A DNA stretch of 64,000 nt from Candidatus Omnitrophota bacterium (GTDB taxonomy: Bacteria; Omnitrophota; Gorgyraeia; B26-G9). The notes beneath the pieces are model-generated. The model searched no databases, was not told the origin of the DNA, and was given only the letters and a program-made list of their open reading frames with translations. Location of the stretch: the NCBI GenBank assembly GCA_043826565.1, contig JBDRPX010000023.1:5758-69757 (forward strand), written 5' to 3'. Made by a program: the position numbers and the translations under genes. The stretch's first letter is position 1, and each line of letters begins with the position of its first letter. Positions 32,990-50,873 of this stretch are shown here, piece after piece.

Positions 32990-33698
32990 TATCCAGCCAA
33001 TTTTTCATCATCCATCTTACGGCAAACATACTTTTAATCCCTATCCACAACCGATTAGAAATCCCATATTTGCTTTTCCCGGCGATGCGGGGATAATGGG
33101 CTACATCAACCTCAATCACCTTAAAACCCTGCATTTTGATCAACACAGGTATAAACCGATGAAAAGTATCATAAAAAGTTAAATTTGCAACACATTCTTT
33201 TTTAAAAACCTTCATCGGAGATCCAATATCATAAAAATCATCTGATAAAAATTTCTGCCTTATTTTGCGGGCAAAGGCGGTGGAAAAACGTTTACTAAAT
33301 ACATCATTACGCTTTCTCCGGCACCCGGTCACACAATCATACCCTTGCACTAATTTGTCCAATAAAACCTGAATATCCCGGGGATGAGATTGCAAATCAG
33401 CATCCATTAGCCCTAAAATTTCATATTTTGCCTGTTTAATACCTGCGGCCAGGGCCGCGGTTTGCCCACCGTGTTTTTTTACTCTAAAAACTCGAAAAGC
33501 ATCTGTTTCCAGTTGCCGAAGCTGTGCATAAGTATCATCTGAGGAAGCATCATCAATATAGATAACTTCATATTTATCCAAATGACGATTATCCGATAAT
33601 GCCGTCGTGATTTCAGAAAACAGACGTTGAACATTTTCTGATTCATTATATAAGGGTATTATTAAAGAGAAATTCATCGCATTACTCCTTGGTTTCAC
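32964..33698 (-). CDS. Polyprenyl-phosphate glycosyltransferase (GT2; GtrB/ArnC/DPM1-like)
   Basis: 244 aa. FSLIIPLYNESENV...YEVIYIDDASSDDT...GLMDADLQSHP are the GT2 DXD/D motifs of bactoprenol-P sugar synthases. Confidence 0.8.
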   Translation of the reverse strand: MKPRSNAMNFSLIIPLYNESENVQRLFSEITTALSDNRHLDKYEVIYIDDASSDDTYAQLRQLETDAFRVFRVKKHGGQTAALAAGIKQAKYEILGLMDADLQSHPRDIQVLLDKLVQGYDCVTGCRRKRNDVFSKRFSTAFARKIRQKFLSDDFYDIGSPMKVFKKECVANLTFYDTFHRFIPVLIKMQGFKVIEVDVAHYPRIAGKSKYGISNRLWIGIKSMFAVRWMMKNWLDNAVETKEK

Positions 33699-35212: not shown

Positions 35213-36526
35213 TTAACCCTTAAAAAAACCCTCAATTAAGCTTAACGCTTCCTTAGCTTGCGCATATTGGCTGATTTTATTCTTTAATATTTCAGAATTT
35301 TTTTTATACTTTTCCTCAATAAGTATTTTTTTTACAGCTGCCGACAGATCTGAAGGATCAAGATCATAGTGATTTTGCACTAAAAAAGCATATTTTCCAT
35401 AAGACCATTTGCAATTAATAATTTTAAAGTCTTCCTTGCTTAATTTTAAAACAATAGCGCAGCCAAGCTGTTCTAAACGCCTACCGTTACCTTCTTGTTC
35501 TGAATGAAAAGGGATTATAATCATTGGCTTACCACAAGAAACTGCTTCCATCATTGTTCCATATCCTCCGTGAAAAATCACTAGATCCGCTTGAGGAATT
35601 ATTTCTTGTGCCGGCACCCAATCAAAAAATCTTACATTATCCGGAATGTCGGTCAACTCTGACAAAGTAAATTTACCCGCTGTGGAAACGATCACATTTA
35701 CATCCAGATTGCGCAGTGCTTCAATTACCGTGAGAAAAAAATTCCGGCTGCCAACCAACCCGGCACCTCCGCCGATTGTAATATAAATCAGAGGCTTATT
35801 TCCTTTAACAAAAGAACCCCATCCTTTGTTTTTTTCCTTTTCCCTTTTAAAAATTAATGGCCCAACATATTTCAGATTTTTTTGGTCCATAATTGGCTCG
35901 ATCTCCGGGATGCTGGGAACGATATATAAATCGCCCTTTAGTAATTCTTCGGCTTTGATGATTTGCGGCATATTTAATTTAGTAAGCAGCGGATTAAATA
36001 AAGCAGCAGTATTCGGAGCACTACATTCATAATCCGCAGTTTTCCACCAAATAATACCCTTTGTCTCCGGATGTGAAGCATAGCGTACAACCTGCACCAC
36101 AGGCAAGTCTAATTTTTTGCCAACCAGGCCCGCAAGCATATGAGTATCCGCGATTAAAATATCCGGTTTAATTTTTCTGATAACTGCCTCATATTGCTTT
36201 AAACGATAATTCACAATTCTTAAGCTACCTAGCCCATCACGTAAAACCTGGTAATCAAGACCACTGAACTCAGTAAACAAAGATGTGGCTGGATTATTAA
36301 TCTTTGGTTTTTTTTGTAGAAATTTTTCTTTAATACTTTGAACTAGTGGCTTCTGATCTATCAAAAAAGTCGTAAATTGAGATTTAAGTTTAGGGAAAAA
36401 TTTTTTATCACTTAAAATAAAAACAGGCTCATGGCCTTTATTTCGCGCTTCTTGCGCCAAACAAATACAGCGGCTAATATGCCCGAATCCGCCACCACTA
36501 TCACTAGGAAAAAACACAATCTTCAT
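35213..36526 (-). CDS. UDP-glycosyltransferase, GT1 family (MGT/MurG-like GT-B)
   Basis: 437 aa. The N-terminal GGGFGHISRC is present. The C-terminal FHGGYGTMMEAVSCGKPMIIIPFHSEQEGNGRRLEQLG is a UDPGT-like donor-binding signature. Confidence 0.7.
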   Translation of the reverse strand: MKIVFFPSDSGGGFGHISRCICLAQEARNKGHEPVFILSDKKFFPKLKSQFTTFLIDQKPLVQSIKEKFLQKKPKINNPATSLFTEFSGLDYQVLRDGLGSLRIVNYRLKQYEAVIRKIKPDILIADTHMLAGLVGKKLDLPVVQVVRYASHPETKGIIWWKTADYECSAPNTAALFNPLLTKLNMPQIIKAEELLKGDLYIVPSIPEIEPIMDQKNLKYVGPLIFKREKEKNKGWGSFVKGNKPLIYITIGGGAGLVGSRNFFLTVIEALRNLDVNVIVSTAGKFTLSELTDIPDNVRFFDWVPAQEIIPQADLVIFHGGYGTMMEAVSCGKPMIIIPFHSEQEGNGRRLEQLGCAIVLKLSKEDFKIINCKWSYGKYAFLVQNHYDLDPSDLSAAVKKILIEEKYKKNSEILKNKISQYAQAKEALSLIEGFFKG

Positions 36527-36592: not shown

Positions 36593-38059
36593 CTATATTT
36601 TTTTCCAATACCACCTAAATATAAAAGAATCAAAAAACATGAAAACTGGTTTTACTAATAATATTTTTAATATCCACTCAGGAGATCCGCCTGTAAACAA
36701 TTTTAACCACATTTTAACAAAAGTCGGAGCAATCTCCGTAAATTCCTCCATATAGATCTTTTTTTCTTTTTCAAGAAATCCGTCTTTTATTGCCTTATTA
36801 TAAATTTCCGAACCAGGATACATGATTAAATGAAAGCAAGTAATACTAGTTCTGACTGGTAAGCGCAAAATAAATTTCAAAGTTGATATTATATCATCAG
36901 TATTTTCGTAGGGGTTATCAAATATAAACTGATAGTTTATTAACGGCGGTATGGATTTTTTATAAAATAAATTTCGGTATTTTTCAACAACAGAGATTGC
37001 CGCAAACGCCTGCTCCGGAGTTTCTCGACGGTTATAAATTTTCAAAATCCGTGCACTTGCTGATTCTACGCCAATACCGAATTTATACAGCAACCCGGTT
37101 TCAGCTAGAAGTGAAAATTTCTCATCTTTAATTGTCGAAGGGCTGCCGCTTGTGCCAAAAGGGATCCCTACTTCTTTTCTCCAGCGGTCACAAAATTCTT
37201 TTAAAATCGGTAATGGCAAAGCTGTAATATTATCATCTGCTAAGAAAACCGCACCTACCACTTTTATGTTTTCAATTGCCAACTTGATTTCTTTAAATAA
37301 ATGGTCTAAAGACCTGAATCGGAAATATTGTTGTCCATTATATATCCGTTTTAGATAGGAATTATTACAATAACTACAACTATTCGGACACCCGCGGCTT
37401 AATGCGGTAAGATAAATTATTTTATCCGGAACCGGACGTTTATAAATCCGGTCAATATCCACAATTAATTCCGGAGTTAATATTTGCAATTTCCCTTCCA
37501 AAAAAACTTTTTGCCGATAAATTCCCGTATCTAAAACCGGCAAGGAATTTAAATCCCCGATCAAAGGCCGCAACGGATTTAAAACACATTTGCCTTCCTT
37601 AAGGTAAGCCAGGTTCGGAATATTATAAATATCTTTCCCGCTGACTAATTTTTGCGCTAATTCCACTGCGGTTTTATCCCCTTCTCCGAGACAGACAAAA
37701 TCCGTAAAACTAACTGAATCCTCAAAAGAGGCCGTCGGATGCGGCCCGCCCCAAATGACCGGAATATCCAGTTTTTCTTTCAGCGCTTTCGTAAAATCAC
37801 TAGCCGCGCAAAACTCACTGGCTGCCAGCGATATCCCAACATACAATGAGCCGCGAATATCATCAATGATTTCATCCATAATCTTTTCCGTAGGAACAAA
37901 ACTTTTTAGCGACGGTGCGCGTGAGCCCCGGAGATACCCAGTATAGCCTAAATGCAAATAATTAACTTTAAATCCGGCATCCTGCAAACAAGCCCCGATT
38001 TGCCGCAAGTTTAAACCAAAAAATCCCGGGTAAAATGATATTAACGTAACTTTTTCCAT
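36593..38059 (-). CDS. B12-binding radical SAM protein (class B)
   Basis: 488 aa. An N-terminal cobalamin-binding Rossmann-like domain (DIPVIWGGPHPT) is present. It is followed by the radical SAM cluster LSRGCPNSCSYCNN (CxxxCxxC). Confidence 0.75.
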   Translation of the reverse strand: MEKVTLISFYPGFFGLNLRQIGACLQDAGFKVNYLHLGYTGYLRGSRAPSLKSFVPTEKIMDEIIDDIRGSLYVGISLAASEFCAASDFTKALKEKLDIPVIWGGPHPTASFEDSVSFTDFVCLGEGDKTAVELAQKLVSGKDIYNIPNLAYLKEGKCVLNPLRPLIGDLNSLPVLDTGIYRQKVFLEGKLQILTPELIVDIDRIYKRPVPDKIIYLTALSRGCPNSCSYCNNSYLKRIYNGQQYFRFRSLDHLFKEIKLAIENIKVVGAVFLADDNITALPLPILKEFCDRWRKEVGIPFGTSGSPSTIKDEKFSLLAETGLLYKFGIGVESASARILKIYNRRETPEQAFAAISVVEKYRNLFYKKSIPPLINYQFIFDNPYENTDDIISTLKFILRLPVRTSITCFHLIMYPGSEIYNKAIKDGFLEKEKKIYMEEFTEIAPTFVKMWLKLFTGGSPEWILKILLVKPVFMFFDSFIFRWYWKKI

Positions 38060-38066: not shown

Positions 38067-39785
38067 CTATTCCCCTGAACGCTTTAACATTAATTTTAAT
38101 TGATTTAGTTTAGCCTGCCGGATTTTCCTTTTCGCAAACCAGGAAATATCAGAAAGCTCATTTTTAACTAATTCGGTTTTAATTTTAAAAAATTTCACAA
38201 TATCTTCGTTGTCGTATCCTTTTAAATAAAAAGGAAAAAAAGCATACATCGGAGAATAATTATAAATCAACCCCGCTTTTTCAATTCGGAGAATAAATTC
38301 CTTAAGCTTCTCCGAAGCACTCAACGAATCTATCGTCGGAGTTTTCCAAAGGCAATAATCATATTTGTCCCCAAAATAGGTCACATTATGTTCGGCTTGC
38401 TCGTCAAAAATTATTGAACCCGGCAGCATATAAAATACATAAATTTTGTATAACTGCAATGGTGAATTATTTATCCAGTTAATCGTATTATTAATGCTTT
38501 CCTCAGTTTCTCCGGGAAAACCGATCATAAAACTGCCATAAGCGATAATCTTATTTTTATCCAGGATTTCTAAACAACGCTGGTTATCCGCAATTGTAGT
38601 TTTCTTATCCATAAGCTTTAACATCCGGTCATCGCCGCTTTCTAATCCCACACAAAGCACTTTACATCCCGATTCTCTTAAAAGTATCGCATTTTCCTCT
38701 GTAATGGAATTAGAACGGATCCCGGCAAACCAGTTAAAATAAAATTTTTCATCAATCATCATCTGACAAATTTGTTCAATACGCTTGGGATGTACAGCAA
38801 AATGATCATCAGTAAAAGCAACATTCTTTATTCCGGCTTTTTTTATTTCTCTTAATTCATTACGGACACTTTCCATCGACCGCTGGTAAATCTTTACTGT
38901 AGCTTTAGGAAAATTACAGAACTTACAGCGAAAAGCACATCCTTGGCTAGCCCGCACAAATGCGATGTCTTTAGTAATTCCCGCTATCTTTGCCCAATCC
39001 GGAAAATCATTATTTAAATCTAATGGATCTGCACCCCGCCGAGAATAGTTTATGCTCCCCTTACGTTTATAAACCAGATTGTTTAAAAGATTAATATCTG
39101 TATTCTTTTTTAAAGCCTCAAGCAATTTATGCAAACTCGGCAAGCCGTTCTCTTCCAGGATAAAATAAATATTTTCATCAATTAATAGATTCTCATAATC
39201 CGGTAGCAGCTTTCCTTGGTCGGTTAATTTAGTTAATATCACGTTACTGCCCATAATAATCGGAATGCTTTTATTTAAGCCCCTAATCAGTAAAATAATT
39301 GCCATTATCTCTTGCGGACTCACAAAATAAGTCGCGGAAATCGCGACTGACAAAGGATTGTTTTTTAAAATTGCTTTCAATTCGTCTTTACATTCAGCAA
39401 CATTATCCATATTAACCGGAGAATAGCCTTTTTTTAATAAAAAATCATAAATATGCAAAGATGTGATAGTCGGAATTCCTGTGGGATTGAAAAACTTTTT
39501 ATCTTTTTGCGGTTCGTAGACATATTTATTATTATTTAATGCAAAATTAAGTAACTCAAATATTCCAAAACGCCAGAAACCAATCCATTCCGGAGCGATA
39601 ATATTATAAAGAATTCGTTCTTTAATTTTTTTGACATTATTTATTTTTGAAATATTTTTCAAGAAGAGCTTGTTTTTAATATACGATAAAACCACTCGCC
39701 CCCTCTTTAAAAATGTTTCTTTTGCAGTTATTGCCGGGATCCGGTTACGGCAGATTATAATTACCTGTTCATTTTTCATTTTCAA
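38067..39785 (-). CDS. B12-binding radical SAM protein (class B), second copy
   Basis: 572 aa. The B12-binding region IPIIMGSNVIL is present. The CxxxCxxC cluster is ASQGCAFRCKFCNF. It is clearly a paralog of the neighbour but strongly diverged. Confidence 0.75.
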   Translation of the reverse strand: MKMKNEQVIIICRNRIPAITAKETFLKRGRVVLSYIKNKLFLKNISKINNVKKIKERILYNIIAPEWIGFWRFGIFELLNFALNNNKYVYEPQKDKKFFNPTGIPTITSLHIYDFLLKKGYSPVNMDNVAECKDELKAILKNNPLSVAISATYFVSPQEIMAIILLIRGLNKSIPIIMGSNVILTKLTDQGKLLPDYENLLIDENIYFILEENGLPSLHKLLEALKKNTDINLLNNLVYKRKGSINYSRRGADPLDLNNDFPDWAKIAGITKDIAFVRASQGCAFRCKFCNFPKATVKIYQRSMESVRNELREIKKAGIKNVAFTDDHFAVHPKRIEQICQMMIDEKFYFNWFAGIRSNSITEENAILLRESGCKVLCVGLESGDDRMLKLMDKKTTIADNQRCLEILDKNKIIAYGSFMIGFPGETEESINNTINWINNSPLQLYKIYVFYMLPGSIIFDEQAEHNVTYFGDKYDYCLWKTPTIDSLSASEKLKEFILRIEKAGLIYNYSPMYAFFPFYLKGYDNEDIVKFFKIKTELVKNELSDISWFAKRKIRQAKLNQLKLMLKRSGE

Positions 39786-42180
39786 CTCCCTCTAAAACAT
39801 GAATCATTCCATTATCGGCATCGACAAATATTTTTTGGCCGGTTTTAATTTTCCGGGTTGCTGTAAATAAATTGCCTACAGCCGGAATACCTATTTCCCG
39901 GGCAACAATTGCTCCATGCGATAAATAATTACCCATATCCGTTACAATTGCGCCCGCAATTGCAAACAATGGCGTCCAACTTGGGTTAGTTGAAGCTGCC
40001 ACTAAAATCTCACCTGCCTTTAAAAGACCCATATCTTTTTTGCTCTTTATCACTCTGGCAATGCCCGTATAATTCCCACTGCTTAAGGCTAATCCCTGCA
40101 GGCTTAATCCCGGAGACTGTTTATGAGAAATTTTTTCTTCCCGGCCACTTTTGTAAATCCTGATCTGTTCAAAAGGTTCCTGCAAACATAAACGTTCCCA
40201 ATCCAGTTTTCTTTGATCGATACAATTCTGTTCTATTTGGGAATCTTTTGTGCAAGCTTCGTCTAATGTCATAAAAAAAATATCATTTAAAGTCTCAAGT
40301 TTCTTTTTTTGAGAAAGTGAAAGGGCCTGTTTTCGAATCTGAAACATTATTTTAACAATATTTTGCTTTATTGCCTCTCTCCAGATACTGCATTTCTGAA
40401 TATGCCGGATAAAAAACTTAGTTGGAAAACGAAATAATAAAGGGATGCTTTTCAATACAAGATTTTCCGTTTTAACTCGTCTCTGGACACGCGAATCTCT
40501 TTCTTGCTCAAAATTAATCTCTGTTTTCTGTGCAATATAATGCTTAAGTGTTATCTCGACAAAACTAGGATCTTCAGCCCAACGAGGATAAAACAACTCA
40601 AATTCCTTTAAAGATTGATGCCCGAATTTTCCCAGAAAGTCATCCCACTTTCTCGCAGAATCCGCTCCATACTTAGAAATAATACCGTGAAAAGAACCTG
40701 AGGAATTTTCTATTTTTTCTAATAAATGTTTTTCCTTGCGTATCGAAGAAGCCAGTTCCCATAAAGCTTCGCTGGCAGCGGTACTCTCGATTTTTCCAAG
40801 CCCGGTAACTAATCCATCCATTATAACCGATACTTTTTCATTCGGCATATTTTTTTTAATTAAACCGCCTAGAATTGCAGTGCCTAATTCAAAGGAAATA
40901 GCGACTTTAACATGTATTTTCATATTTTGTTCTAAAAATTCTCTTAAATCCTTTAACGCTTCTTTTTCTTCCAAAATCATGCTTTGGCTCAATCTTTCAG
41001 GGAATCGCTTTTGCGCCACATGCACAAGAAAAGGTAACCTTATAAGAGATATAAAATAAAAAAATAAGATTTTAAACAAGATAAAGGGATTATGCTTTTT
41101 AATATCCTGAACATTATAAATCTGTTTGAACACCGTTTGATTACAATAAGCTCTGCCGTCAAAAAGAGAAAACAGATCCTGCTCAATGGGGGGTAGTCCT
41201 AAGCTTGCTACCGCATTTTTAAAACCTTGATTTGTGGCCTTATTCACAACTGACCAGGTAAATGGAGTTACAACATCAGGAATAACATCTGCCACATTAT
41301 CCCGGGTCCACAAAATATATTCATCTTGTTTGGTCTTACCTATTGTGATAGGCCTTACCTGCAAAACAAATAATTTATTTTCTTGATATGCCCATTCAAT
41401 ATCTACCGGATATTTAAACAACTCTTTTATCTTTTGCGCTAATCGGGAGATCTCTTCTATTTGCTTCAAGTTTAAAACAGGATGATCCGATAATTTATCC
41501 GGCAGTTCGCTTAATTGTTGCGGATTCTCCGGAGAACGCCAATGTCTTTGCTTTCCGGTAATAACCTTATTTACATTCTCATTATCTATATCAATCTCAT
41601 ATTGATCTGCTACCGCTTCCCCGCTTACTAATGCCTCGGCCAAACCATAAACCGCATTAATAATAATGTTTTTACTTTCGGGGTGGTTAGGATCTTGTGA
41701 AAAACATACTCCTGAACTAATCGGAGAAAGTACTTTTTGAATAAGCAAAGCCATCCTTCTAGGCTTATCCATTTTATTCACTGAAATCTCCTGTTCATAA
41801 CATTTAACATTCTGAGAGTCACCCGATTTCCAACAAGCCTGACACGCATTCTTAATCTCAGAAGTCTCATTCTGACAAATTAAAGACAGATACTGGCCCG
41901 CATAAGAAGCTTGAGCGCTATCCTCGGATTCTCCTGATGACCGGACAATCAGCAAACAATTATCAGGAAAACACTTTTTTATATCCGAATAAAGCTGTTC
42001 TAAGTTTTCTTTGTTTTTAAAAGCAGTATACGCTTGAAAATTTAAAATTACCCCATCAGGCACGGAAAACCCCGTTTTATAGCAAATCGCGCAATTAAAC
42101 GCCTTTGCCCCTGTAAAGGGTAAACCTTCAGCATAAGCTTCATCATATGTGTAAATAAATTTGTTAGGCACCAAAAACAA
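39769..42180 (-). CDS. PEP-utilising phosphotransferase (PEP synthase / rifampin-phosphotransferase-like: PPDK_N ATP-grasp + phosphohistidine swivelling domain)
   Basis: 803 aa. The N-terminal PPDK_N-like domain carries GAKAFNCAI...VIVRSS. The C-terminal GNYLSHGAIVAREIGIPAVGN is the PEP-utilizers mobile-domain signature with the phospho-His. Confidence 0.7.
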   Translation of the reverse strand: MFLVPNKFIYTYDEAYAEGLPFTGAKAFNCAICYKTGFSVPDGVILNFQAYTAFKNKENLEQLYSDIKKCFPDNCLLIVRSSGESEDSAQASYAGQYLSLICQNETSEIKNACQACWKSGDSQNVKCYEQEISVNKMDKPRRMALLIQKVLSPISSGVCFSQDPNHPESKNIIINAVYGLAEALVSGEAVADQYEIDIDNENVNKVITGKQRHWRSPENPQQLSELPDKLSDHPVLNLKQIEEISRLAQKIKELFKYPVDIEWAYQENKLFVLQVRPITIGKTKQDEYILWTRDNVADVIPDVVTPFTWSVVNKATNQGFKNAVASLGLPPIEQDLFSLFDGRAYCNQTVFKQIYNVQDIKKHNPFILFKILFFYFISLIRLPFLVHVAQKRFPERLSQSMILEEKEALKDLREFLEQNMKIHVKVAISFELGTAILGGLIKKNMPNEKVSVIMDGLVTGLGKIESTAASEALWELASSIRKEKHLLEKIENSSGSFHGIISKYGADSARKWDDFLGKFGHQSLKEFELFYPRWAEDPSFVEITLKHYIAQKTEINFEQERDSRVQRRVKTENLVLKSIPLLFRFPTKFFIRHIQKCSIWREAIKQNIVKIMFQIRKQALSLSQKKKLETLNDIFFMTLDEACTKDSQIEQNCIDQRKLDWERLCLQEPFEQIRIYKSGREEKISHKQSPGLSLQGLALSSGNYTGIARVIKSKKDMGLLKAGEILVAASTNPSWTPLFAIAGAIVTDMGNYLSHGAIVAREIGIPAVGNLFTATRKIKTGQKIFVDADNGMIHVLEGVENEK

Positions 42181-43219
42181 ACCTCTCTAATTTCCCGCAT
42201 TCTTTATCTTGGATTTCTCCATTAATTGACAATTGAGCGTTAACAACTGTTTGTAAATATTGCCCCTTGCCTAAGTGTGACTTTAACCATTTCGGATATG
42301 ATTTTAACTTTAATAAATAAAACATAATCACTAATAGTGTATTTAACCGGTTATTATTTGTCATCCCTAAAGGAAACTCCTGAGACACATAATTACAATC
42401 AGAGATTAAGCTAATCTCATACTGTTTATCAGCATTAAAACTAAGTTTCATACTGTACGGCACTCCACTTTCTGTGATATCATTCTCTGCTCCGGATTTC
42501 TCACTGACCTTCAAATCAATAGCGTTGATTTGTTTACCGCTTTTATCCAGCAAACATAAAATCCTAAGTTTTTCTTTTTTTCCTTTTATCTCTATTTCAG
42601 AAAATATAAATGTAAAGTCCTTAAAAAACACTCGGGTCCAAACCCACCCTTTAAACTCTCGCGCGATATTGAGATTACCCCAATTATGATCGTGATACGC
42701 AATCCCCTCGATATTTATAGTTCTCCGGTCAATTTCAATCTTTCCTTTTGCTTGCGCCCGAGGTAAAGGAACGATCCAATTAAACCACTCATTGTTTGTT
42801 TTATTTTTATAGATACACTCACTGTTGTTACAAAAAAATGGCAATTGACGTTTTAGCGTTACATCAACCGTAATGTCCTTTTCCTTAACAAAAATTTTAT
42901 AATCCCCGTTATTTTCTTCTATCCGCCCACCCGGGAAAATAATTTTACAAAAATTTTTATCCTGGGTAATCTTTGCCCGCGAATAGCGTAAAACCCGTAC
43001 TGTAGATTGACCCTGATCATGATTATTTTTATTAAAATTTTCATATATCCGGATAATTAAAAGGCATAAATTATTTCTCAGGCTAAAGACCGGGGACTGC
43101 CACTCTATATATACATTCCTCCCATCTTTTAAATCAAAATCAAAATACCACCACTCGAAAAACTTACTCGGATTTTCTATGTGAGACCCATCATGCCGCA
43201 AAGATTTAGATTGATCCAT
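42164..43219 (-). CDS. Putative CrtC/AttH-family protein (hydroxyneurosporene-synthase-like hydratase + lipocalin-like domain); low confidence
   Basis: 351 aa. FFEWWYFDFDL was recalled as characteristic of the PF07143 family. The size fits. The call is supported mainly by its position next to a CrtI/CrtD-like gene. Confidence 0.4.
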   Translation of the reverse strand: MDQSKSLRHDGSHIENPSKFFEWWYFDFDLKDGRNVYIEWQSPVFSLRNNLCLLIIRIYENFNKNNHDQGQSTVRVLRYSRAKITQDKNFCKIIFPGGRIEENNGDYKIFVKEKDITVDVTLKRQLPFFCNNSECIYKNKTNNEWFNWIVPLPRAQAKGKIEIDRRTINIEGIAYHDHNWGNLNIAREFKGWVWTRVFFKDFTFIFSEIEIKGKKEKLRILCLLDKSGKQINAIDLKVSEKSGAENDITESGVPYSMKLSFNADKQYEISLISDCNYVSQEFPLGMTNNNRLNTLLVIMFYLLKLKSYPKWLKSHLGKGQYLQTVVNAQLSINGEIQDKECGKLERFVFGA

Positions 43220-43238
43220 AAACTACCTTTTCTAAAAA

Positions 43239-44600
43239 TTATAACTTATTTTGTTTAGCAATTAACCGCCCGCATTGAATTCCTGATTCCATTGCCTGAG
43301 GCACACATGGGCCTTCCGGAGACACGGAATCTCCCACTAAAAATAATCCATGAATATCCGTTTCGACAGGAACACGTGGAGATTGAATTTGCGGCTCTAC
43401 TCCAAAAACATAAGCCGGCAACCCAAATTCTTTTTCATACATTTTTGGATTATAAATAGTATAATTTGTCACTGCACCAGCTAACCCGGGGAACAAATCA
43501 TTAAGCCCCTGGTTTAAAACTAAATGAGCCTGTTTTTCAACCAGATCCGGGTTCACATTTCCTCGGGGATGATAAAACTGCAATGTTGCTCGGTGACAAT
43601 CTTTTACATCATATTCCATATTTGAGGGTATATGCATTATAAACATTGACTTGGCCGGGAATTCCCCCCGTTCTAATAAATCAAACTCGGAAGACACATC
43701 GTAAGGCATAAAAAAAACACCATATCCTTTAGGCAATCTAAACGATTTACGGAATCTAATAAAGATATTAACAACGCTTAATGTTTCTTTCATCTGGCTC
43801 ACTGCATTATAAAAATCTTTTTTCCAATTTTCGCGTCGTGTTAAATTCAAAACTGTCTGTCGCAAACCAACATTGCTGATTATAGTTTCCGCGAATAGAT
43901 TTTCGCCGTCAGCTTCAACTCCGACAACACGCTCCTTTTCAATAATTATTTTTTTTATTGTTTTATTCATGATTATTTTGCATTTCTTTTCGGCTACTTC
44001 CATTAGTTTTGCCGCAATTTGGCCATTTCCTCCGGCAATATACTCAGGGTTAAGTCCTTTATACTCTGCTATTGCACTTTCTTGAGAAAAATATCTTGAA
44101 GGTAATCCATAGGGGCTAACCCCAGAAACTGCTACTATGGTATCCCAGAATCTTCTTAGTTTTTCATTCGATATCAATTGATCGTATAATTCCCCTACAG
44201 ATTTGAACTTTTCAAAAGTATCCGAATCACTCAAAATCTTTGCTTTAGCTCTAAACCTTAACAACTCTGTAAACGGAATACCAGAAAAAATGAATTCTAT
44301 CAGCGTTCTTTTCCCTAAAGGAAATGAAGCCATTCCTTTACCAATCTTTATGCCACAACGCATCGGAAAAGTTGTAAGATTAAGCCCAAAAGTATCTCTT
44401 AAATGATCAAATGCCGCTCCTCCAACGTAAATAGCCCCGATTTCATAGCTTAATCCATCAATACTTCTCGTTGCACACCGCCCTCCCAACAGACTATTTT
44501 GTTCGATCAAAATCGAATTGATTCCGTTCTTACTTAAGTAAGCCGCAGCAGTTAGCCCTCCGACACCTCCTCCGATAATAATTACAGGCACCTTACTCAT
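43239..44600 (-). CDS. Phytoene-desaturase-family FAD oxidoreductase (CrtI/CrtD/CrtN-like)
   Basis: 453 aa. The N-terminal VIIIGGGVGGLTAAAYLSKNGINSILIEQNSLLGGRCAT is the FAD-binding motif. The C-terminal GLFLVGDSVSPEGPCVPQAMESG is CrtI-typical. Confidence 0.75.
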   Translation of the reverse strand: MSKVPVIIIGGGVGGLTAAAYLSKNGINSILIEQNSLLGGRCATRSIDGLSYEIGAIYVGGAAFDHLRDTFGLNLTTFPMRCGIKIGKGMASFPLGKRTLIEFIFSGIPFTELLRFRAKAKILSDSDTFEKFKSVGELYDQLISNEKLRRFWDTIVAVSGVSPYGLPSRYFSQESAIAEYKGLNPEYIAGGNGQIAAKLMEVAEKKCKIIMNKTIKKIIIEKERVVGVEADGENLFAETIISNVGLRQTVLNLTRRENWKKDFYNAVSQMKETLSVVNIFIRFRKSFRLPKGYGVFFMPYDVSSEFDLLERGEFPAKSMFIMHIPSNMEYDVKDCHRATLQFYHPRGNVNPDLVEKQAHLVLNQGLNDLFPGLAGAVTNYTIYNPKMYEKEFGLPAYVFGVEPQIQSPRVPVETDIHGLFLVGDSVSPEGPCVPQAMESGIQCGRLIAKQNKL

Positions 44601-45601
44601 CAGACTGCTCCCACTATTTTTAAGCGATTATTTAATAATACCAATAAAGGGAAAAATGTTTTTTTATAAGGAGTTTTTGCAGACATATACTGTAGGAATT
44701 TTTTAGTATAAAAATTTTTCGTCATTCTGGAAAATTCCTTTCGGGCAATCTTCTCATTCATGAAATAATCTGCCGCAATTTTCCCAGACAAAAGCGCTCC
44801 GGAAATCCCGTTTAAGTAAAAGGGGTCGATCATTCCGCTCATCGTTCCAGCTAAAGCAATTCCCTCTTTTTCGATATTTTTATTAAGCGGAATACTGCCG
44901 GAGGAAAATGTCCATGATTTAAAAGCAATTTTTTCTTTTTCCCAAATAAAATCCTCAAATCTTTTCAGCTTATCGCTACTCATTGAATTACGGGAAAACA
45001 AAAGGCCGAAAACACAATCTTCATATGAAGCAAGATAAGCAAACTCCCCATTTGTATAATCACCAAAACATGAAACCGCCATATTTTTGTTTTGCGTAAT
45101 TCCCGAAGCCCTAAACCCCTGGATCATCTTATATTTGATGCCGCATATTTGATAAGCCGGAAGCTCTAATCCGCAAGCAATTATAGCTTTTGATCTGTCT
45201 TTTTTGAGAGAATTTAAAGTTTCTTGATCAAGCGGCTGGTTAAAAATAAATTTCACTCCTAACCCGCAAGCAATTTTATAAAGGTAATTTTCAATTGAAT
45301 TTTCATGGCCGCCTTTTAAACACAAAAAAGCGTGAAGAGGGTTCACAGCATGAGTTTTTTTGTCATAAAAATATATCGAATGTCTTACCGCACGGCGAAA
45401 ACACCGCGACATATCGATACCGATGTATTCCGAGGTGCGTTCAAGGTCCATATATTGCAGATGAACAGACGGATGCCATTTAGGATCGCCCCCTACTGTT
45501 TTTCTGTTTTCAATGATTTCCGCTTCAAAACCGGCCTTAGCCAAATTTATGCCGGCAACCAACCCGGAAATGCCTGCTCCGTAAATTCTAATTTTTTCCA
45601 T
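44600..45601 (-). CDS. Geranylgeranyl-reductase-family flavoprotein (GGR-like FAD-dependent oxidoreductase)
   Basis: 333 aa. The N-terminal IYGAGISGLVAGINLAKAG is a Rossmann motif. The C-terminal LAGTMSGMIDPFYLNGISGALLSG resembles the GGR GDAAG..P..GEGI motif. Confidence 0.55.
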   Translation of the reverse strand: MEKIRIYGAGISGLVAGINLAKAGFEAEIIENRKTVGGDPKWHPSVHLQYMDLERTSEYIGIDMSRCFRRAVRHSIYFYDKKTHAVNPLHAFLCLKGGHENSIENYLYKIACGLGVKFIFNQPLDQETLNSLKKDRSKAIIACGLELPAYQICGIKYKMIQGFRASGITQNKNMAVSCFGDYTNGEFAYLASYEDCVFGLLFSRNSMSSDKLKRFEDFIWEKEKIAFKSWTFSSGSIPLNKNIEKEGIALAGTMSGMIDPFYLNGISGALLSGKIAADYFMNEKIARKEFSRMTKNFYTKKFLQYMSAKTPYKKTFFPLLVLLNNRLKIVGAV

Positions 45602-45621: not shown

Positions 45622-47067
45622 TTAAGATGATTTTAAAAAACTTAAAATTTCGGAAATTTTTTTCATTTTTAATTCACCAAGCACGATCAGAAAAATAGTA
45701 TAACAAAATAGTCCGACAAAAAACGGGATCAGGAAAAACATATCTTTCATAAAGAAGATTATTCCTCCTGTCAAAATAGCAGCAAAAATCGGCTTATATC
45801 CTAAACTGATCAAAGTAGGACTATTTTTAAACGACTCCCTGAATAAACGCGATTTCATTACAAGCACTAGGAAACCACAAAAAACAGTTGCCGCACTTGC
45901 ACCCAGGTATCCATATTGGGGAATCAAAATAAGATTTAACACGAAATTTGCACAGATTATAATCAATGAGCCAACCATTAAGATTTTAAGTTTTTCTTTC
46001 TGCACAATCAAAAACAGCCCCATTGGCCCGGCAAAATGATTCAACAAGAAAGACCAGATTAAAATCCTGAAAACCTGAGAACTAAGGGCAAATTCCTTTC
46101 CAAAAACAAATGGCACAATTTGCCCAGAAAGCAAAAACAGTGCTACCGTAAAAAAACTGGAAAAAATTATCATTACTCTCATTGATTTAAGATATATTGG
46201 GTATGTATTTTCTAAAGAGCTCTTACTTTGGGATGATATAAATGGCAGCATCGCACCCATAAAACAACCAGTTACCACACCTAAAGCTTCATTCAGTTGA
46301 ACCGCCACCCCATATATTCCTACATCCTGCATAGTTTTCATTTTAGAAAGCATGACAATATCCATTCTTCTTAATAAAATGCTTAAACCAATAAGAGAAA
46401 AAAGAGGAAAAGCCTGCTTTAAAAGACTATTTACTATCTTCAGATCAAATCTGGGTTTAAATTTGACAAAATCCTTTTGAACAATGTAAAAAAGCACAAG
46501 GGAAGTAATTCCTGTGCCTAAGATCATCAGCAATATCATTCCCCCAAGATTTAAACCTAACCGAAGAAATAAAATACCCAATATCGTAAAAAAAGCGGAA
46601 AGAACGACCCCAACAACAGAAAAGATTTCCATCTTCTCAAATCCGCTTAAAACCGCGGTTAACCGGCTAATTGCCGAATTAAAAAAGATCGTGCTGCCCG
46701 CTAAAACAATTAAAAAAATCAATTGTTTAGGGTAACCTAAATACACTGCGAAAAGTACCATCCCTATCCAGGCCAGCAATGAAAAACCCATGGATAAAAA
46801 TATGGAATTACCATAAAGCTCCTGAGCTTTTGTCTTGTCTTTGGCGATTTCCCGGGTGATGACAGTTGATAAACCAAAATCCGCAAAAATATTAGCAAAA
46901 GTAAGAAAAGCTAAAATAGTGGAAAACATGCCGAAGCCGTCCCGAGAAAGATATCGGGCTACGTACGAGATAAAAATTAAATTTATGACCCCCGTAAATA
47001 CTTTATTACCGAAAAGAGCAATCGTATTTTTAATTACTCTGAATAGGTCCGTTTTTTTATGTTCCAT
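45622..47067 (-). CDS. Wzx-type flippase (polysaccharide biosynthesis protein, MOP superfamily), second copy
   Basis: 481 aa with 12-14 TM segments. N-terminus: IKNTIALFGNKVFTGVINLIFISYVARYLSRDGFGMFSTILAF. Confidence 0.75.
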   Translation of the reverse strand: MEHKKTDLFRVIKNTIALFGNKVFTGVINLIFISYVARYLSRDGFGMFSTILAFLTFANIFADFGLSTVITREIAKDKTKAQELYGNSIFLSMGFSLLAWIGMVLFAVYLGYPKQLIFLIVLAGSTIFFNSAISRLTAVLSGFEKMEIFSVVGVVLSAFFTILGILFLRLGLNLGGMILLMILGTGITSLVLFYIVQKDFVKFKPRFDLKIVNSLLKQAFPLFSLIGLSILLRRMDIVMLSKMKTMQDVGIYGVAVQLNEALGVVTGCFMGAMLPFISSQSKSSLENTYPIYLKSMRVMIIFSSFFTVALFLLSGQIVPFVFGKEFALSSQVFRILIWSFLLNHFAGPMGLFLIVQKEKLKILMVGSLIIICANFVLNLILIPQYGYLGASAATVFCGFLVLVMKSRLFRESFKNSPTLISLGYKPIFAAILTGGIIFFMKDMFFLIPFFVGLFCYTIFLIVLGELKMKKISEILSFLKSS

Positions 47068-47070: not shown

Positions 47071-47847
47071 TTATCTCTTTATCTTTTCTGTTTTCAAACC
47101 ACCCTGCGCTTTTTTTGAACAACTTTTCTCCGTCTTAAAAAAATTCACACGTTTCTTTTTATGAATTATTTTATGTAAAAATTTTCTAATTCTAGGCTTT
47201 GAAGTGTAAAAATCTTCAAAATGATCCCAAGGCCTGTCATCACGGCTATTCTTTTGAAATAAAATTAGATTTGCCTGAGGAGTTTTAACTAAACTATAGT
47301 CTTTACGATTGGTTTTTATCCAGGAGGAAATACTCTGTAATGCCGGCATCCAAGAATCATGAAACAGAATATAACTACCCTGATTTAATAATAAGTCAGC
47401 AAAGAAAAAATCCACAAACGCGAAATCAAATTTATGATCTCCATCTATAAAAATAAAATCAAATTTCATGCCATCATCAAGAAACTGCGGCAAAATATTA
47501 TATGAGAAATCATTTTTAAAAGTAAGATACTTATCAAACCCCAGATTCTTCAAATTTTTCAATCCCAGATTTTTAAATTTTTCCTGAAAAGGGTCAATGG
47601 CGTAATGCCGGCTTTCTGTTGCCGAAATAATATGTGCAGCCGAACACCCAAAGGCCAAACCAATTTCTAGAGTTTTTTTTATATTTTTTTCCTTTAAAAA
47701 AAAGTGGATGTATTCCGCTTCATCTTTTGAAATTGAGATTAAAGAATATTTTTCAGGAATTACTAAGTTCTCATATATATTCTGTGTCATATTATTCTCC
47801 GGCAATTGGATTATCCTCAATCTTTTAAAATTACTTACTCTTTCCAC
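47071..47847 (-). CDS. Class I SAM-dependent methyltransferase (Methyltransf_24 / O-MT family 3-like)
   Basis: 258 aa. LEIGLAFGCSAAHI is a glycine-rich SAM motif. FIFIDGDHKF...GSYILFHD matches the family. Confidence 0.55.
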   Translation of the reverse strand: MERVSNFKRLRIIQLPENNMTQNIYENLVIPEKYSLISISKDEAEYIHFFLKEKNIKKTLEIGLAFGCSAAHIISATESRHYAIDPFQEKFKNLGLKNLKNLGFDKYLTFKNDFSYNILPQFLDDGMKFDFIFIDGDHKFDFAFVDFFFADLLLNQGSYILFHDSWMPALQSISSWIKTNRKDYSLVKTPQANLILFQKNSRDDRPWDHFEDFYTSKPRIRKFLHKIIHKKKRVNFFKTEKSCSKKAQGGLKTEKIKR

Positions 47848-47855: not shown

Positions 47856-49001
47856 CTATTTCTCATCTTTCTGTTCCGATGTTTTTTTCTGGAGAAATTG
47901 AGAATGCAGAATTTTTTTCTTTAACAAGTTAAATATCCTCAGGTTGCTGCCTTTTTGGTAAAAAATTACAAACAGGGAAAATAAATGATCCTTTAAGCTA
48001 AGATCAGAAAAATTAAAATTAATAAAGAACAACAACCCCGCGAAAACAATTAAAAATAGAGGGTATTTTAAAGTAATAATTAAAGCGAGAGATATCGGTA
48101 AAATTACATTGGGAAAATAAATATGTAAAAGATTATACGGACTCGTCCATTGTCTTGATTCCCACTGATAATAAGGATCGTAGAAATCTTTGTTTTTCAT
48201 ATTAGCAATATCTAAATAAACAGTCTGTAAAAAGAGCACGGCGAATAAAAAGACAACCGGTAAAACAAACCACGGCACTTTTATTAAGATAATCATCATA
48301 AAAACAAGCCAGGCTATTCTTTCGACGACAAGTGCTTTCCGGTAAAGTTTTGTCATTTTTTCCATGCCGATTTTAGACCCCATAGTCGCGGTTCCGGATT
48401 TAACATCATTAACCGCATCAAAAGCCTGGTGGCCGATTTCCTTGCCCAGCCCAATCACAATGGCACAGCAGGCAATGGACCACATATCCCATCCTCCGAA
48501 TACTCCGAAAGCGGAAAATAGAAGCATAATCGGCAAAGGAGACTGGGCAAAACAAGCCGCGGCTATTCCCACCCCGCCCCGTTCTTTGAACCGGATTGGT
48601 TTTAGAGAATAAAACGTTGATAAAAATATTTGAATTACCCATAAAAAAATAAAATAGTCTTCTTTAATAAATTTGATTCCGGTTAAGATTACTAATAAAA
48701 AAAGAATGCTTACAACAGCTACAGCTTTGGCATTGCTAATATTTAAAAAAGTGTTGCTCTTCCCCTCTTGCCGATCCGGCTCTTTATCTCCGAATTCATT
48801 AATTAAGTAACCATACAGGCTGGACACCGAAGCAAAGGCAATAAATATAAAAAAATCCCTTATAAATACCAGTGAGTACTTAGAATATGCTAAGCAAACA
48901 TAAAAACAGGTAATCACCAAAAAAGGCAATTTATCCGTAGCCCAATCTGTCCAGCGAAGAGTCTTAAGAATTTTTGCTTTTTCCCACATATTCACTTCCA
49001 T
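47856..49001 (-). CDS. UbiA-superfamily membrane prenyltransferase
   Basis: 381 aa, polytopic. The first Asp-rich motif is YLINEFGDKEPD (N-x-x-x-D-x-x-x-D). The second is HQAFDAVNDVKSG (D-x-x-x-D). Confidence 0.55.
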   Translation of the reverse strand: MEVNMWEKAKILKTLRWTDWATDKLPFLVITCFYVCLAYSKYSLVFIRDFFIFIAFASVSSLYGYLINEFGDKEPDRQEGKSNTFLNISNAKAVAVVSILFLLVILTGIKFIKEDYFIFLWVIQIFLSTFYSLKPIRFKERGGVGIAAACFAQSPLPIMLLFSAFGVFGGWDMWSIACCAIVIGLGKEIGHQAFDAVNDVKSGTATMGSKIGMEKMTKLYRKALVVERIAWLVFMMIILIKVPWFVLPVVFLFAVLFLQTVYLDIANMKNKDFYDPYYQWESRQWTSPYNLLHIYFPNVILPISLALIITLKYPLFLIVFAGLLFFINFNFSDLSLKDHLFSLFVIFYQKGSNLRIFNLLKKKILHSQFLQKKTSEQKDEK

Positions 49002-49909
49002 TCCAGATTTTTAATGTTCACTTCTCTCAATAAAAACCCATCCCGCAGTCCTCTCATCTTCGCAAAAATAGGTTTTTTGTAACCAATAAGTATTTTCTTC
49101 AGAATAACCCAAACACATTCCGCAATTGAAAAAAACATGAATTTTAAAAAATTCCCCCAAGAAGCATTCTTGCGCACAAACATCGCCGCGCCTCTGCCCA
49201 TCAGATAATACCAGCGGGGATTACGGTCTCCTCCGGTGCTAGCGGCAACACTGTGCCAGATCCTTGCTAAGGGCACATAAACCACCTTATATCCTTTAGC
49301 CTTTGCGCGTACGCACCAATCCACATCTTCGAAATAGGAAAAATATACGGGATCAAGCAGGCCTATTTCATCAATAACTTTTTTCTTAATCAGCAATCCG
49401 CACCCGATGATAAAATCAACTTCCCGCATGTTGTTAAACTGCCCAAAATCAAGACAGTTACACCCTATAGAATTAATCACATATTCATGAAAATTAATTT
49501 TACCTCCGATTGAATACAAATACCCGGGATGCAGTTCTAAGTGATACATTTTAGGGCCTAATATCCCGGCCTGCGCATTCTGTTCTCCGGCATCAACAAG
49601 ATGATTTAACACGTCACTGTCTACCATGGTATCATTATTGAGTAAAAATATATATTCTGCCCCTGCTTTTAGAGCCAAACGCATCCCGACATTATTACCT
49701 TCACAAAACCCCAGGTTTTTTTTATTCTTAATTATCCGGATATCCGGATAATTTTCCGAAATACAAAATGCCGACCCGTCAGTAGAACCATTATCCACAA
49801 AAAACACTTCGTAATTAGGATACTTTAACTGGCTTACGCTATAAAGACATTTCAGGCTATCTTGTTTACCATTCCAATTTAATATAATAATCGCTACTTT
49901 AGGATACAT
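48992..49909 (-). CDS. Glycosyltransferase family 2
   Basis: 305 aa. VAIIILNWNGKQDS...YEVFFVDNGSTDGS and the later NND (DXD equivalent) match GT2. Confidence 0.8.
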   Translation of the reverse strand: MYPKVAIIILNWNGKQDSLKCLYSVSQLKYPNYEVFFVDNGSTDGSAFCISENYPDIRIIKNKKNLGFCEGNNVGMRLALKAGAEYIFLLNNDTMVDSDVLNHLVDAGEQNAQAGILGPKMYHLELHPGYLYSIGGKINFHEYVINSIGCNCLDFGQFNNMREVDFIIGCGLLIKKKVIDEIGLLDPVYFSYFEDVDWCVRAKAKGYKVVYVPLARIWHSVAASTGGDRNPRWYYLMGRGAAMFVRKNASWGNFLKFMFFSIAECVWVILKKILIGYKKPIFAKMRGLRDGFLLREVNIKNLEWK

Positions 49910-50873
49910 CTCGCCCTTTTCGTTTATTTTTGAGCTTCATTAAATATTTTTGAGACCGAAATCCCTCTTTTTGAGCCTGCGCCATAAGATGGGAGTAAAT
50001 ATACCATTGCAAAGATTCCTTCTTTATGAATTTAGAAATAATCCAAATCCATAAAGGTAAAACTTTACTGTTAAAAAACAATTCCCGAAGCACCTCTCTG
50101 ATGATTTTTTCCAATGAGGAATAATCACGCAAGCCAAATTCAAATAGAACATTTTTTTCATCAGGCAGCTTTGATTCCCATATGGCCAGTGCCGCGCCCA
50201 GGTTTTTATTATGCAAAATAAAAGGTTCAGGATCCTGAAAAATATGATAATGATAGACACAAGCATCAGGATTATACATAATACGCAGCCCTTTTTTACC
50301 CAGGCGATGCCCTAATTCTCTATCCTCGTGAGCAGCATAGGGAAAATCTTCATCAAAAAGTCCGTTCTCTACTAAAAAATCTTTCTTAACCGAGATATTG
50401 CAGGTTATAAAATCAATCGGCCGGGCCTCCGCTAACCCTTTTATTTTATTAAACTCACCAATTAAATAGTGACTTGCGAATATAGGGACGGAAATACCTT
50501 CAGCCCATGTAGCATACCCCAGAACTGCCACATTTTCCTCCGGCCATTTTTGATGGCAAGCAATATGTTGCTCCAGGAAATCATCAGCCGGGATAGTATC
50601 ATCATTTATAAAAAGAACCAATGGGTATTTTGCCTCTTTAATGCCTAAATTTCTTGCTACAGCAGGGCCTTTATTTTTCTGATAGAAGTATCTGATATTA
50701 AGGCGACCTGACTTGGAAAATTTCAAAACACTCTCTTGCGTGCCGTCCCGAGAACCATCATCGACAATAATTATTTCAAAATTTGCAACGGAAAAAGTTT
50801 GCCGGTCAAAAGCTTCCAAAACGCGGATTAATACATCTTTTCGATTATATGTCGGAATAATAACTGTAAGCAT
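49899..50873 (-). CDS. Glycosyltransferase family 2
   Basis: 324 aa. LTVIIPTYNRKDVL...FEIIIVDDGSRDGT...INDDT match GT2. Confidence 0.8.
   Translation of the reverse strand: MLTVIIPTYNRKDVLIRVLEAFDRQTFSVANFEIIIVDDGSRDGTQESVLKFSKSGRLNIRYFYQKNKGPAVARNLGIKEAKYPLVLFINDDTIPADDFLEQHIACHQKWPEENVAVLGYATWAEGISVPIFASHYLIGEFNKIKGLAEARPIDFITCNISVKKDFLVENGLFDEDFPYAAHEDRELGHRLGKKGLRIMYNPDACVYHYHIFQDPEPFILHNKNLGAALAIWESKLPDEKNVLFEFGLRDYSSLEKIIREVLRELFFNSKVLPLWIWIISKFIKKESLQWYIYSHLMAQAQKEGFRSQKYLMKLKNKRKGRDVS

Follow-up and report, generated by a model that had tools for sequence, protein, structure and literature searches.

The 64,000-nucleotide window analysed here derives from a metagenome-assembled genome (MAG) of Candidatus Omnitrophota, has a GC content of ~37%, and carries all of its annotated genes on the minus strand. 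Between positions 58834 and 30179, 25 of these genes form a ~28 kb operon in which every gap is 66 nt or shorter and several start and stop codons overlap. Within this operon, a short flavoprotein with a fold of the geranylgeranyl reductase (GGR)/FixC type (hereafter sGGR-like), a flavoprotein of the CrtI superfamily (CrtI-like), and a CrtC/AttH-family protein (AttH-like) are encoded one after the other, with a 1-nt overlap between the first two genes and a 19-nt spacer before the third (Table 1). A preliminary description of this DNA, made from its letters and open reading frames (ORFs), had singled out these three genes as carotenoid-type tailoring enzymes embedded in a glycosylation operon, and each is indeed an intact minus-strand ORF with exactly the boundaries given there. 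On balance, we think it probable that the operon serves to synthesize a non-carotenoid isoprenoid glycolipid or phosphoglycolipid and to export it, and that the trio is the variable module that tailors its lipid tail.

The AttH-like protein is the member of the trio whose family is most readily recognized. Its CrtC/AttH affiliation had been put forward as possible, subject to a check against PF07143, and that check bore it out: the match exceeds the Pfam gathering score (33.1 vs 22.5 bits) and spans profile positions 2–168 of 168. A profile built from 52 members of the AttH-like family retrieved AttH (2ich, E = 5e-9) and kievitone hydratase (7a0q, E = 5e-5), and a Foldseek search with the AlphaFold2 model (predicted local distance difference test score 89) matched the same two enzymes (2ich, E = 9e-13; 7a0t, E = 9e-10), which share the double beta-barrel fold of AttH. 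The AttH-like protein contains the N-terminal EWWY motif, and residues D177, W192, and W194 are invariant across the 52 homologs. Their spacing (15 and 17 residues) equals that of D268, W283, and W285 in Rubrivivax CrtC (RgCrtC), a correspondence based on spacing rather than direct alignment; mutagenesis of RgCrtC identified D268 as the protonating acid and W283 and W285 as carbocation-stabilising residues (PMC12402844). RgCrtC hydrates the terminal unit of C13–C20 terpenoids (PMC12402844), and a prenyl group is hydrated by kievitone hydratase (PMC5805349). In fold, EWWY motif, and the spacing of the catalytic Asp and Trp-x-Trp residues, the AttH-like protein resembles enzymes whose chemistry turns a terminal prenyl unit into a tertiary alcohol. 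It differs from them in having no carotenoid pathway nearby and in being paired with a kinase gene, and the CrtC equivalog model NF045922 is not reached (21.4 bits vs a cut-off of 400). We infer that the AttH-like protein hydrates a trisubstituted isoprene double bond, the alternative being a phospho-lyase role that is weighed below together with the kinase.

The two flavoproteins are more distant from characterized enzymes. The CrtI-like protein matches PF13450, which covers the N-terminal FAD fold, at 48 bits, and PF01593 over residues 14–443. Its best NCBIfam models are all of carotenoid type, namely CRTISO (71 bits vs a cut-off of 587), crtI_fam (TIGR02734; 65.3 vs 238), and CrtD (64.7 vs 580), followed by HpnE (46.9 vs 283) and CrtO (45.4 vs 1000); none of these CrtI, CrtD, CRTISO, HpnE, or CrtO cut-offs is reached. 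With a profile of its own family, the best matches in the PDB were 4rep, 3nrn, 4dgk, and 3ka7, with 4rep scoring 82 bits in two stretches that extend to the C-terminus and 4dgk scoring 64 bits, while amine oxidases of the monoamine oxidase type reached at most 51 bits, and these in the N-terminal half only. Homologs of the CrtI-like protein comprise ~43 clusters at 37–54% identity, after which identity falls sharply to 24%, a discontinuity that sets the protein apart in a distinct subfamily. The sGGR-like protein scores 33.8 bits against the GGR model TIGR02032, short of the cut-off of 158.8, and aligns at residues 201–279 only. The fold of its predicted structure lies nearest to GGR and FixC rather than to monooxygenases or halogenases, with some similarity to UbiH-type and other group-A flavin monooxygenases. 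As judged from this model, it is GGR-like in fold and not a demonstrated member of the GGR family, and it may act as a prenyl-chain reductase. The family assignments made earlier for the two flavoproteins were thus right in kind, the relationships being remote and below curated cut-offs, and neither protein groups with the amine oxidases or halogenases that had been named as the outcome that would overturn them.

To place the trio in context, we compared the operon with related loci. Look-ups and one genome-collection scan yielded 11 further distinct loci (L001, L002, which is the same as L003 and L005, L004, L006–L011, L013, and L014); the scan was pattern-based and found seven loci among 185,579 species genomes. 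The hosts are a PVC-group MAG, Syntrophorhabdus, Thermodesulfobacteriota, and several members of Anaerolineae, Thermoflexia, and Chloroflexota, along with two unassigned metagenome contigs. The core of this cassette consists of UbiA, a rifampin phosphotransferase-like (Rph-like) kinase, a Wzx flippase, a glycosyltransferase of family 1 (GT1), and one glycosyltransferase of family 2 (GT2). The kinase occurs in all 11 of the other loci and the remaining core genes wherever the contig reaches, with a Polysacc_synt-type flippase present in the related loci where this could be checked. A minimal version from Anaerolineae consists of Wzx, UbiA, the kinase, GT1, and the sGGR-like, CrtI-like, and AttH-like genes. 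Our literature searches found no published description of this gene combination; the ebo operon and Lipocone/UbiA neighbourhoods are different systems. The ~500-aa uncharacterized membrane proteins of the loci were likewise considered as a further core family, and BLASTP and hhalign resolved them into three unrelated groups.

Against this fixed core, the trio varies. The order sGGR-like then CrtI-like is kept in Syntrophorhabdus, Thermodesulfobacteriota, Chloroflexota, and one unassigned contig, at 36–49% identity to the window proteins, and its recurrence in four other lineages indicates that the pairing is not due to chance. In the closest relative of the window, L011 (PVC-group MAG GCA_024231215.1; genes 66–91% identical), the CrtI-like gene has undergone a clean internal deletion of 1,291 nt (window positions 44565–43275; L011 positions 10995–11095) that leaves the neighbouring genes intact. 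What is left is a scar in the form of a 16-codon mini-ORF, MINKMLLIIIGAGAGD*, made up of the first and last codons of the gene, which shows that the other steps of the pathway can do without the CrtI-like one. In L014 (Chloroflexota), a single flavoprotein with a GGR_cat domain replaces the sGGR-like and CrtI-like pair, and it shares 40% identity with a protein scoring above the cut-off of the GGR model (210.8 vs 158.8 bits); that a canonical-type GGR takes this position lends indirect support to a reductive role for the two flavoproteins. Neither flavoprotein is found in L013, which keeps an AttH-like gene overlapping the kinase gene, and in five loci the AttH-like protein is replaced by a 408-aa protein remotely tied to the GGR superfamily. 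The last exchange had suggested to us an alternation between hydratase and cyclase, as Pfam assigns 'Lycopene_cycl' to the 408-aa protein; we dropped this idea given that TIGR02032 matches the protein over its full length (49–84 bits) with the cyclase family second. The trio is thus a variable and exchangeable tailoring module on a fixed core, and all of its members come from isoprene-modifying families.

These observations bear on whether the trio tailors a conventional C30, C40, or C50 carotenoid whose synthase is encoded elsewhere, with UbiA acting like a lycopene elongase, the CrtI-like protein as a CrtD-like desaturase, and the AttH-like protein as a 1,2-hydratase. Bacterioruberin synthesis in haloarchaea employs UbiA, a CrtI-family protein, and a protein of the 1,2-hydratase family, so that the operon holds a parallel set of enzymes, and the carotenoid-type models that head the list for the CrtI-like protein point the same way. 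We nevertheless consider this explanation highly unlikely. Window ORFs were scanned with Pfam and NCBIfam on the minus strand, taking those of at least 120 aa and the 102-aa LAB_N ORF, with the plus-strand ORFs (all of 201 aa or less) outside the scan; no SQS_PSY-type (phytoene or squalene) synthase was detected among them, in agreement with the preliminary description, which had seen no CrtB/HpnD-type synthase in the 64 kb. Nor was a head-to-head synthase found in ~6.7 kb past the low end of the window (L015) or among the scanned ORFs of 13 related loci, and neither there nor in the window was a phytoene, dehydrosqualene, or squalene synthase seen in association with the CrtI-like gene. The crtE-crtB-crtI cluster that would have restored a conventional pathway was likewise not seen in the window or in those ~6.7 kb, the one flank covered, where more exopolysaccharide genes lie instead. 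In addition, carotenoid equivalog scores amount to ~4–17% of their cut-offs, the sister locus L011 has lost the CrtI-like gene with the rest intact, a GGR-type reductase stands in for the flavoprotein pair in L014, and the operon encodes three oxygen-sensitive radical S-adenosylmethionine (radical-SAM) enzymes. We also count against a carotenoid product that the named host lineages live anaerobically and in the dark.

The preliminary description had placed the trio among a Wzx flippase, UbiA, and many GT2 enzymes, all of which Pfam confirmed, and the operon is indeed one for glycosylation. What had been overlooked is that it also encodes 1-deoxy-D-xylulose 5-phosphate (DXP) synthase (DXS), isopentenyl-diphosphate isomerase (IDI), the Rph-like kinase, and the three radical-SAM enzymes, and that it belongs to a cassette spread across phyla in which the trio is the variable part. 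The IDI gene directly follows that for DXS at the 3' end of the operon; Pfam recognizes only a NUDIX domain in its product, which exceeds both NCBIfam equivalog cut-offs. The presence of DXS and IDI marks this as a dedicated terpenoid operon, and the L001, L004, and L011 cassettes likewise encode DXS.

The core UbiA protein has residues N68, D72, D76, D195, and D199 (NxxxDxxxD and DxxxD) that are invariant in eight orthologs. With a profile of its family, the single solved relative retrieved was chlorophyll a synthase (9sau, E = 5e-10, 42 bits), a match that, from sequence, hints at O-prenylation and no more than that. A prenylated aromatic compound or quinone, in which UbiA would prenylate a ring, a PHBH-fold flavoprotein hydroxylate it, and methyltransferases finish it, would account for the resemblance of the sGGR-like model to UbiH-type and group-A monooxygenases and for the two methyltransferases in the operon. 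This strikes us as scarcely credible, given that ring-forming and decarboxylase genes are absent, that the core comprises the flippase, GT1, and kinase and not the methyltransferases, and that a hydroxylase in need of oxygen is unlikely to work alongside radical-SAM enzymes.

The prenyl synthase homolog had been described as motif-less, and both of its aspartate-rich motifs are truly lost: the first reads IHAGLAATGNEDYCCG and the second FNDLRD, as against DDLPSMDNDDFRRG and DDILD in 7my6, and the RRG motif has become CCG. These changes suggest that the gene is in decay or that its product has become a regulatory subunit or been put to another use. In L001, L004, and L013 the synthases at the same position have canonical motifs (DDLPHMD and DDLxD), and L011 keeps the second motif only. 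Small residues precede the first Asp-rich motif in the L001, L004, and L013 enzymes, which we take, by the usual chain-length rule, to indicate a C20 product. As the copy in the window has lost its catalytic motifs, the prenyl diphosphate is presumably supplied in this genome by a housekeeping enzyme.

These features also separate the two readings that had been offered for the operon, namely modification of a polyprenyl glycan carrier and a glycosylated isoprenoid lipid product. The latter fits better because the synthases found in the other loci are of the GGPPS-like trans type, with no cis-prenyltransferase, because UbiA is part of the core, and because the GT1 (TIGR01426 MGT, 125.8 bits; 33–44% identity in other loci) is of the kind that acts on aglycones. 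Remodelling of the carrier, with the flavoproteins and hydratase saturating or hydroxylating a polyprenyl phosphate to give a dolichol-like lipid on which GT2 enzymes build a glycan for export by Wzx, fits less well and appears to us unlikely, though parts of it may be true. The flippase, a GT2 with C-terminal transmembrane (TM) helices, the polytopic or GT-C-like membrane proteins, and a kinase that could form a lipid phosphate are all compatible with it, as is the finding that the scanned ORFs of the window and related loci contain no initiating phosphoglycosyltransferase of the Bac_transf or WecA type. There is also precedent in GGR paralogs that saturate polyprenols and quinones, including archaeal dolichol (PMC10821996). 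It leaves unexplained why UbiA, which has no role in polyprenyl-phosphate synthesis, should be a core component, why no locus has a cis-prenyltransferase and the synthase encoded with the cassette belongs to the short-chain trans class, why the GT1 is of the aglycone type, and why the tailoring genes vary between close relatives when the glycan genes stay.

The Rph-like kinase gene overlaps the AttH-like gene by 17 nt; this overlap, like that between the sGGR-like and CrtI-like genes, suggests that the paired proteins form complexes. The kinase combines an ATP-grasp (PPDK_N) domain with a swivel domain, and an enzyme of the Rph type would be expected to transfer the beta-phosphate of ATP and release AMP. 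It matches the NCBIfam models for Rph (238.7 bits vs a cut-off of 999), PigC (301 vs 1300), and phosphoenolpyruvate (PEP) synthase (302 vs 883) without reaching any of them; the swivel catalytic-histidine motif GNYLSHGAIVAREIGIPAV is intact (SHGAIVAR), and an Rph_4th domain is recorded on its orthologs. Residues 364–390, in the middle, substrate-binding region, form a strongly hydrophobic stretch that would suit a lipid substrate or membrane association. Immediately upstream of the Wzx and UbiA genes in three Chloroflexota versions of the cassette (L002, 914–2416; L008, 2313–3764; and L014, 2282–3760) lies a homolog of the RNA 3'-phosphate ligase RtcB, an enzyme that links phosphate monoesters with hydroxyl groups, a reaction that could be paired with that of the kinase.

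The close association of the kinase and AttH-like genes, which either overlap or directly adjoin each other in the window, L011, L013, and L014, raises the possibility that the kinase phosphorylates a tertiary alcohol and that the AttH-fold protein is a phosphate lyase, so that a double bond is moved or created rather than hydrated. Such a cascade has been established on the isoprenoid side chain of cholesterol in Sterolibacterium (PMC8449060, PMC11061730), an anaerobe in which an ATP-dependent 25-hydroxysteroid kinase (25-HSK) and an AttH-fold enzyme, 25-phosphosteroid lyase (25-PSL), act at a tertiary carbon, and the AlphaFold2 model of the AttH-like protein does match 25-PSL (9g4c, 9fzn, and 9g2i; E = 6e-11 to 8e-9) as well as the pericyclases CghA, Fsa2, and Phm7. 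We consider this interpretation doubtful for several reasons. The family profile retrieves AttH and kievitone hydratase and does not detect 25-PSL, five loci contain the kinase without an AttH-like gene, and the context is biosynthetic, whereas the steroid system is catabolic. We also considered 25-HSK as an Rph-family homolog of the cassette kinase; bands of 30–40 kDa in the enriched 25-HSK preparation, compared with ~90 kDa expected for an Rph-type protein of 803 aa, make it probable that the two belong to different kinase families (PMC8449060).

Returning to an isoprenoid glycolipid as the product, the observations themselves cover gene content, the families and folds of the proteins, their conserved catalytic residues, the packing of the operon, its synteny across phyla, and the gain and loss of the trio; from these we infer the chain length, all substrates, the product, and the order of the steps as follows. 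DXS and IDI would boost the supply of isopentenyl and dimethylallyl diphosphate, from which a short-chain trans-prenyl diphosphate, most likely C20 geranylgeranyl diphosphate, would be made, in other lineages by the synthase of the cassette itself. UbiA would then transfer the prenyl group onto a polar acceptor, or ionise it, within the membrane. The sGGR-like flavoprotein may saturate double bonds of the chain, with its CrtI-superfamily partner reducing, isomerising, desaturating, or hydrating another position, and the AttH-like enzyme would protonate a trisubstituted C=C bond and add water to yield a tertiary alcohol. Phosphorylation of a lipid hydroxyl by the kinase via its swivel histidine would be followed by the addition of sugars by GT1 and GT2 enzymes and by modification of the tail or head group by the radical-SAM, short-chain dehydrogenase/reductase (SDR), and methyltransferase enzymes, after which Wzx would flip the product outward. 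Among the radical-SAM enzymes, the PhpK-like protein (TIGR04479, 288 bits vs a cut-off of 600; its L008 ortholog is 54% identical), in which Pfam finds no B12-binding domain, may act on the tail or head group of the lipid, by methylation or in some other way. The HpnJ-like protein (85.7 bits vs a cut-off of 577) has orthologs in L004, L006, L011, and L013.

Several findings weigh against this pathway. Both flavoproteins fall far below every curated family cut-off. GGRs typically carry a flavin-proximal cysteine and a YxWxFP motif, and the regions of the sGGR-like consensus that correspond to these by eye read 'PxWHPSVH' and 'DFAYLAS', so that the motifs are not conserved. A phosphate lyase and pericyclases share the AttH fold as well, so that hydration is not the sole activity to be expected of it. 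The prenyl synthase in the window looks inactive, leaving the C20 chain to be deduced from other lineages, and the acceptor used by UbiA is hinted at solely by the weak match to chlorophyll synthase.

A more far-reaching version of the proposal, which we regard as a long shot, is that the product is a lipid anchor or carrier of a previously unknown kind. Here a short, partly saturated prenyl lipid would be hydrated by the AttH-like protein, and the resulting alcohol, possibly tertiary, would be phosphorylated by the kinase; a glycan would be built on the lipid phosphate so formed by the GT1 and GT2 enzymes and exported by Wzx, bypassing undecaprenyl phosphate and the usual initiating phosphoglycosyltransferase. 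A tertiary alkyl phosphate has a group-transfer potential like that of ATP (PMC8449060).

The closest parallel to the cassette is the archaeal tail-tailoring toolkit of GGR, Has, Hgs, B12-dependent radical-SAM methylases, and the Ted desaturase, in which the same four families are responsible for O2-free saturation, hydration, and methylation or desaturation of a geranylgeranyl-derived tail. There, the AttH-like hydroxy-GDGT synthase Hgs and the CrtI-family hydroxyarchaeol synthase Has produce hydroxylated ether lipids beside B12-dependent radical-SAM tail enzymes, and the Hgs gene likewise overlaps a partner gene (bioRxiv 10.1101/2025.10.20.683597). In contrast to the archaeal toolkit, the cassette resides in bacteria, contains no GGGPS, DGGGPS, or Tes, has a UbiA that is not DGGGPS-like, and is organized around a core of the Rph-like kinase, GT1, and Wzx; all of its proteins are remote relatives of the archaeal enzymes. 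The logic of chlorophyll and tocopherol synthesis is also similar, in that the UbiA-type ChlG uses a C20 prenyl diphosphate and the GGR-type ChlP saturates the chain, but the match to chlorophyll synthase is weak, there is no tetrapyrrole or aromatic pathway, and the product here would be glycosylated and flipped. Clusters for hopanoid side chains and for phosphoglycolipids of the moenomycin type resemble the operon in decorating an isoprenoid lipid with the help of GT2, HpnA-like SDR, and HpnJ-like B12-dependent radical-SAM enzymes, and moenomycin biosynthesis uses an atypical prenyl-synthase homolog. The operon differs from these in lacking squalene-hopene cyclase, the HpnCDE/HpnH set, and a MoeO5-type enzyme, and its scores against Hpn models lie far below the cut-offs.

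If the operon does make an isoprenoid glycolipid, it would provide a testable bacterial source for orphan isoprenoid lipids and biomarkers of anoxic sediments and bioreactors, and tail-tailoring chemistry regarded as 'archaeal' would operate in bacteria too. It would also furnish the first native-type functions for a large orphan clade of Rph/PEP synthase-like kinases, for a new CrtI subfamily, and for a short GGR/FixC-fold family. The natural variants, in which the CrtI-like gene is deleted, a GGR takes over, or both flavoproteins are missing, offer a ready series in which steps could be assigned by mass shift.

Table 1. Genes of the operon at window positions 58834–30179, listed in the direction of transcription.
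Feature	Position	Strand	Basis and remarks
GT2	58055-58834	-	Pfam; upstream block
GT2	57168-58055	-	Pfam; upstream block
Radical-SAM/SPASM protein	56089-57177	-	Pfam/NCBIfam; upstream block
HpnA-like SDR	55104-56087	-	Pfam/NCBIfam; upstream block
Polytopic membrane protein, no family	53540-55114	-	TM count; upstream block
Methyltransferase	52723-53616	-	Pfam; upstream block
GT2 with C-terminal TM helices	51833-52768	-	Pfam and TM count; upstream block
FPPS/GGPPS homolog, degenerate motifs	50921-51799	-	PF00348 96 bits
GT2	49899-50873	-	Pfam; flanks UbiA
GT2	48992-49909	-	Pfam; flanks UbiA
UbiA-family membrane prenyltransferase, core	47856-49001	-	PF01040 41.7 bits vs 34.2
O-methyltransferase-like protein	47071-47847	-	Pfam; flanks UbiA; insert, absent from sister locus L011
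Wzx/MOP-family flippase, core	45622-47067	-	PF01943 93.2 bits
Short FAD flavoprotein, GGR/FixC-type fold (sGGR-like), 333 aa	44600-45601	-	
CrtI-superfamily flavoprotein, 453 aa	43239-44600	-	PF01593 61 bits
CrtC/AttH-family protein, 351 aa, no signal peptide	42164-43219	-	PF07143 33.1 bits
Rifampin phosphotransferase/PEP synthase-like kinase, 803 aa, core	39769-42180	-	PPDK_N 155.8 bits, PEP-utilizers 74.4 bits
Radical-SAM protein, best match B12-dependent PhpK-type P-methyltransferases	38067-39785	-	Radical_SAM 95.3 bits
B12-binding radical-SAM protein, best match HpnJ	36593-38059	-	B12-binding 39.1 bits, Radical_SAM 56.7 bits
GT1, macrolide/aglycone type (MGT, EryCIII-like), core	35213-36526	-	EryCIII-like_C 73.5 bits, UDPGT 47.8 bits
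PMT_2 GT-C glycosyltransferase	33682-35166	-	Pfam; window-specific insert
ArnC/PgfS-like GT2	32964-33698	-	NCBIfam; window-specific insert
LAB_N membrane protein	32681-32989	-	Pfam; window-specific insert
DXP synthase (DXS)	30767-32635	-	DXP_synthase_N 391 bits
Type 1 isopentenyl-diphosphate isomerase (IDI)	30179-30748	-	NF002995 169.8 bits vs 127; TIGR02150 152.5 bits vs 105.8

The upstream block of the operon (51833–58834) is syntenic in L001, L004, L006, and L013, at 43–70% identity. Between GT1 and DXS lies an insert of three genes (PMT_2, ArnC-like GT2, and LAB_N) that resembles a module for polyprenyl-phosphate-sugar donors; in L011 the insert (32681–35166) is absent and GT1 is followed directly by DXS.

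Relatives of the trio were also seen in other settings. In Anaerolineales, L010 (6825–11047) is a decayed cassette, with a DDE transposase, only a fragment of the sGGR-like gene, and a truncated CrtI-like gene alongside a protein scoring above the GGR cut-off (210.8 bits). A clade of sGGR-like paralogs (~360 aa, 33–39% identity) is represented in Actinomycetota (L012, GCA_014360655.1) outside the cassette, near a glycyl-radical enzyme and a B12-dependent radical-SAM gene; we dropped these paralogs as a functional lead on account of their unrelated context.

The remainder of the window towards its low end (1071–29278), together with L015 beyond it, holds a second large locus, for an exopolysaccharide, with Wza, Wzz/GNVR, a tyrosine-kinase ATPase, UDP-glucose dehydrogenase, Wzy, and Wzx. 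Also encoded there are repeated pairs of FemAB-like GNAT and ATP-grasp proteins, an asparagine synthase, an AMP-ligase, an APH-type kinase, and deacetylases, a content that suggests an amino-acid-decorated glycan. Three genes for four-helix-bundle proteins of PF05635 ('23S rRNA intervening sequence protein') are interspersed within this polysaccharide region, at 17962–18381, 19467–19877, and 24304–24666.

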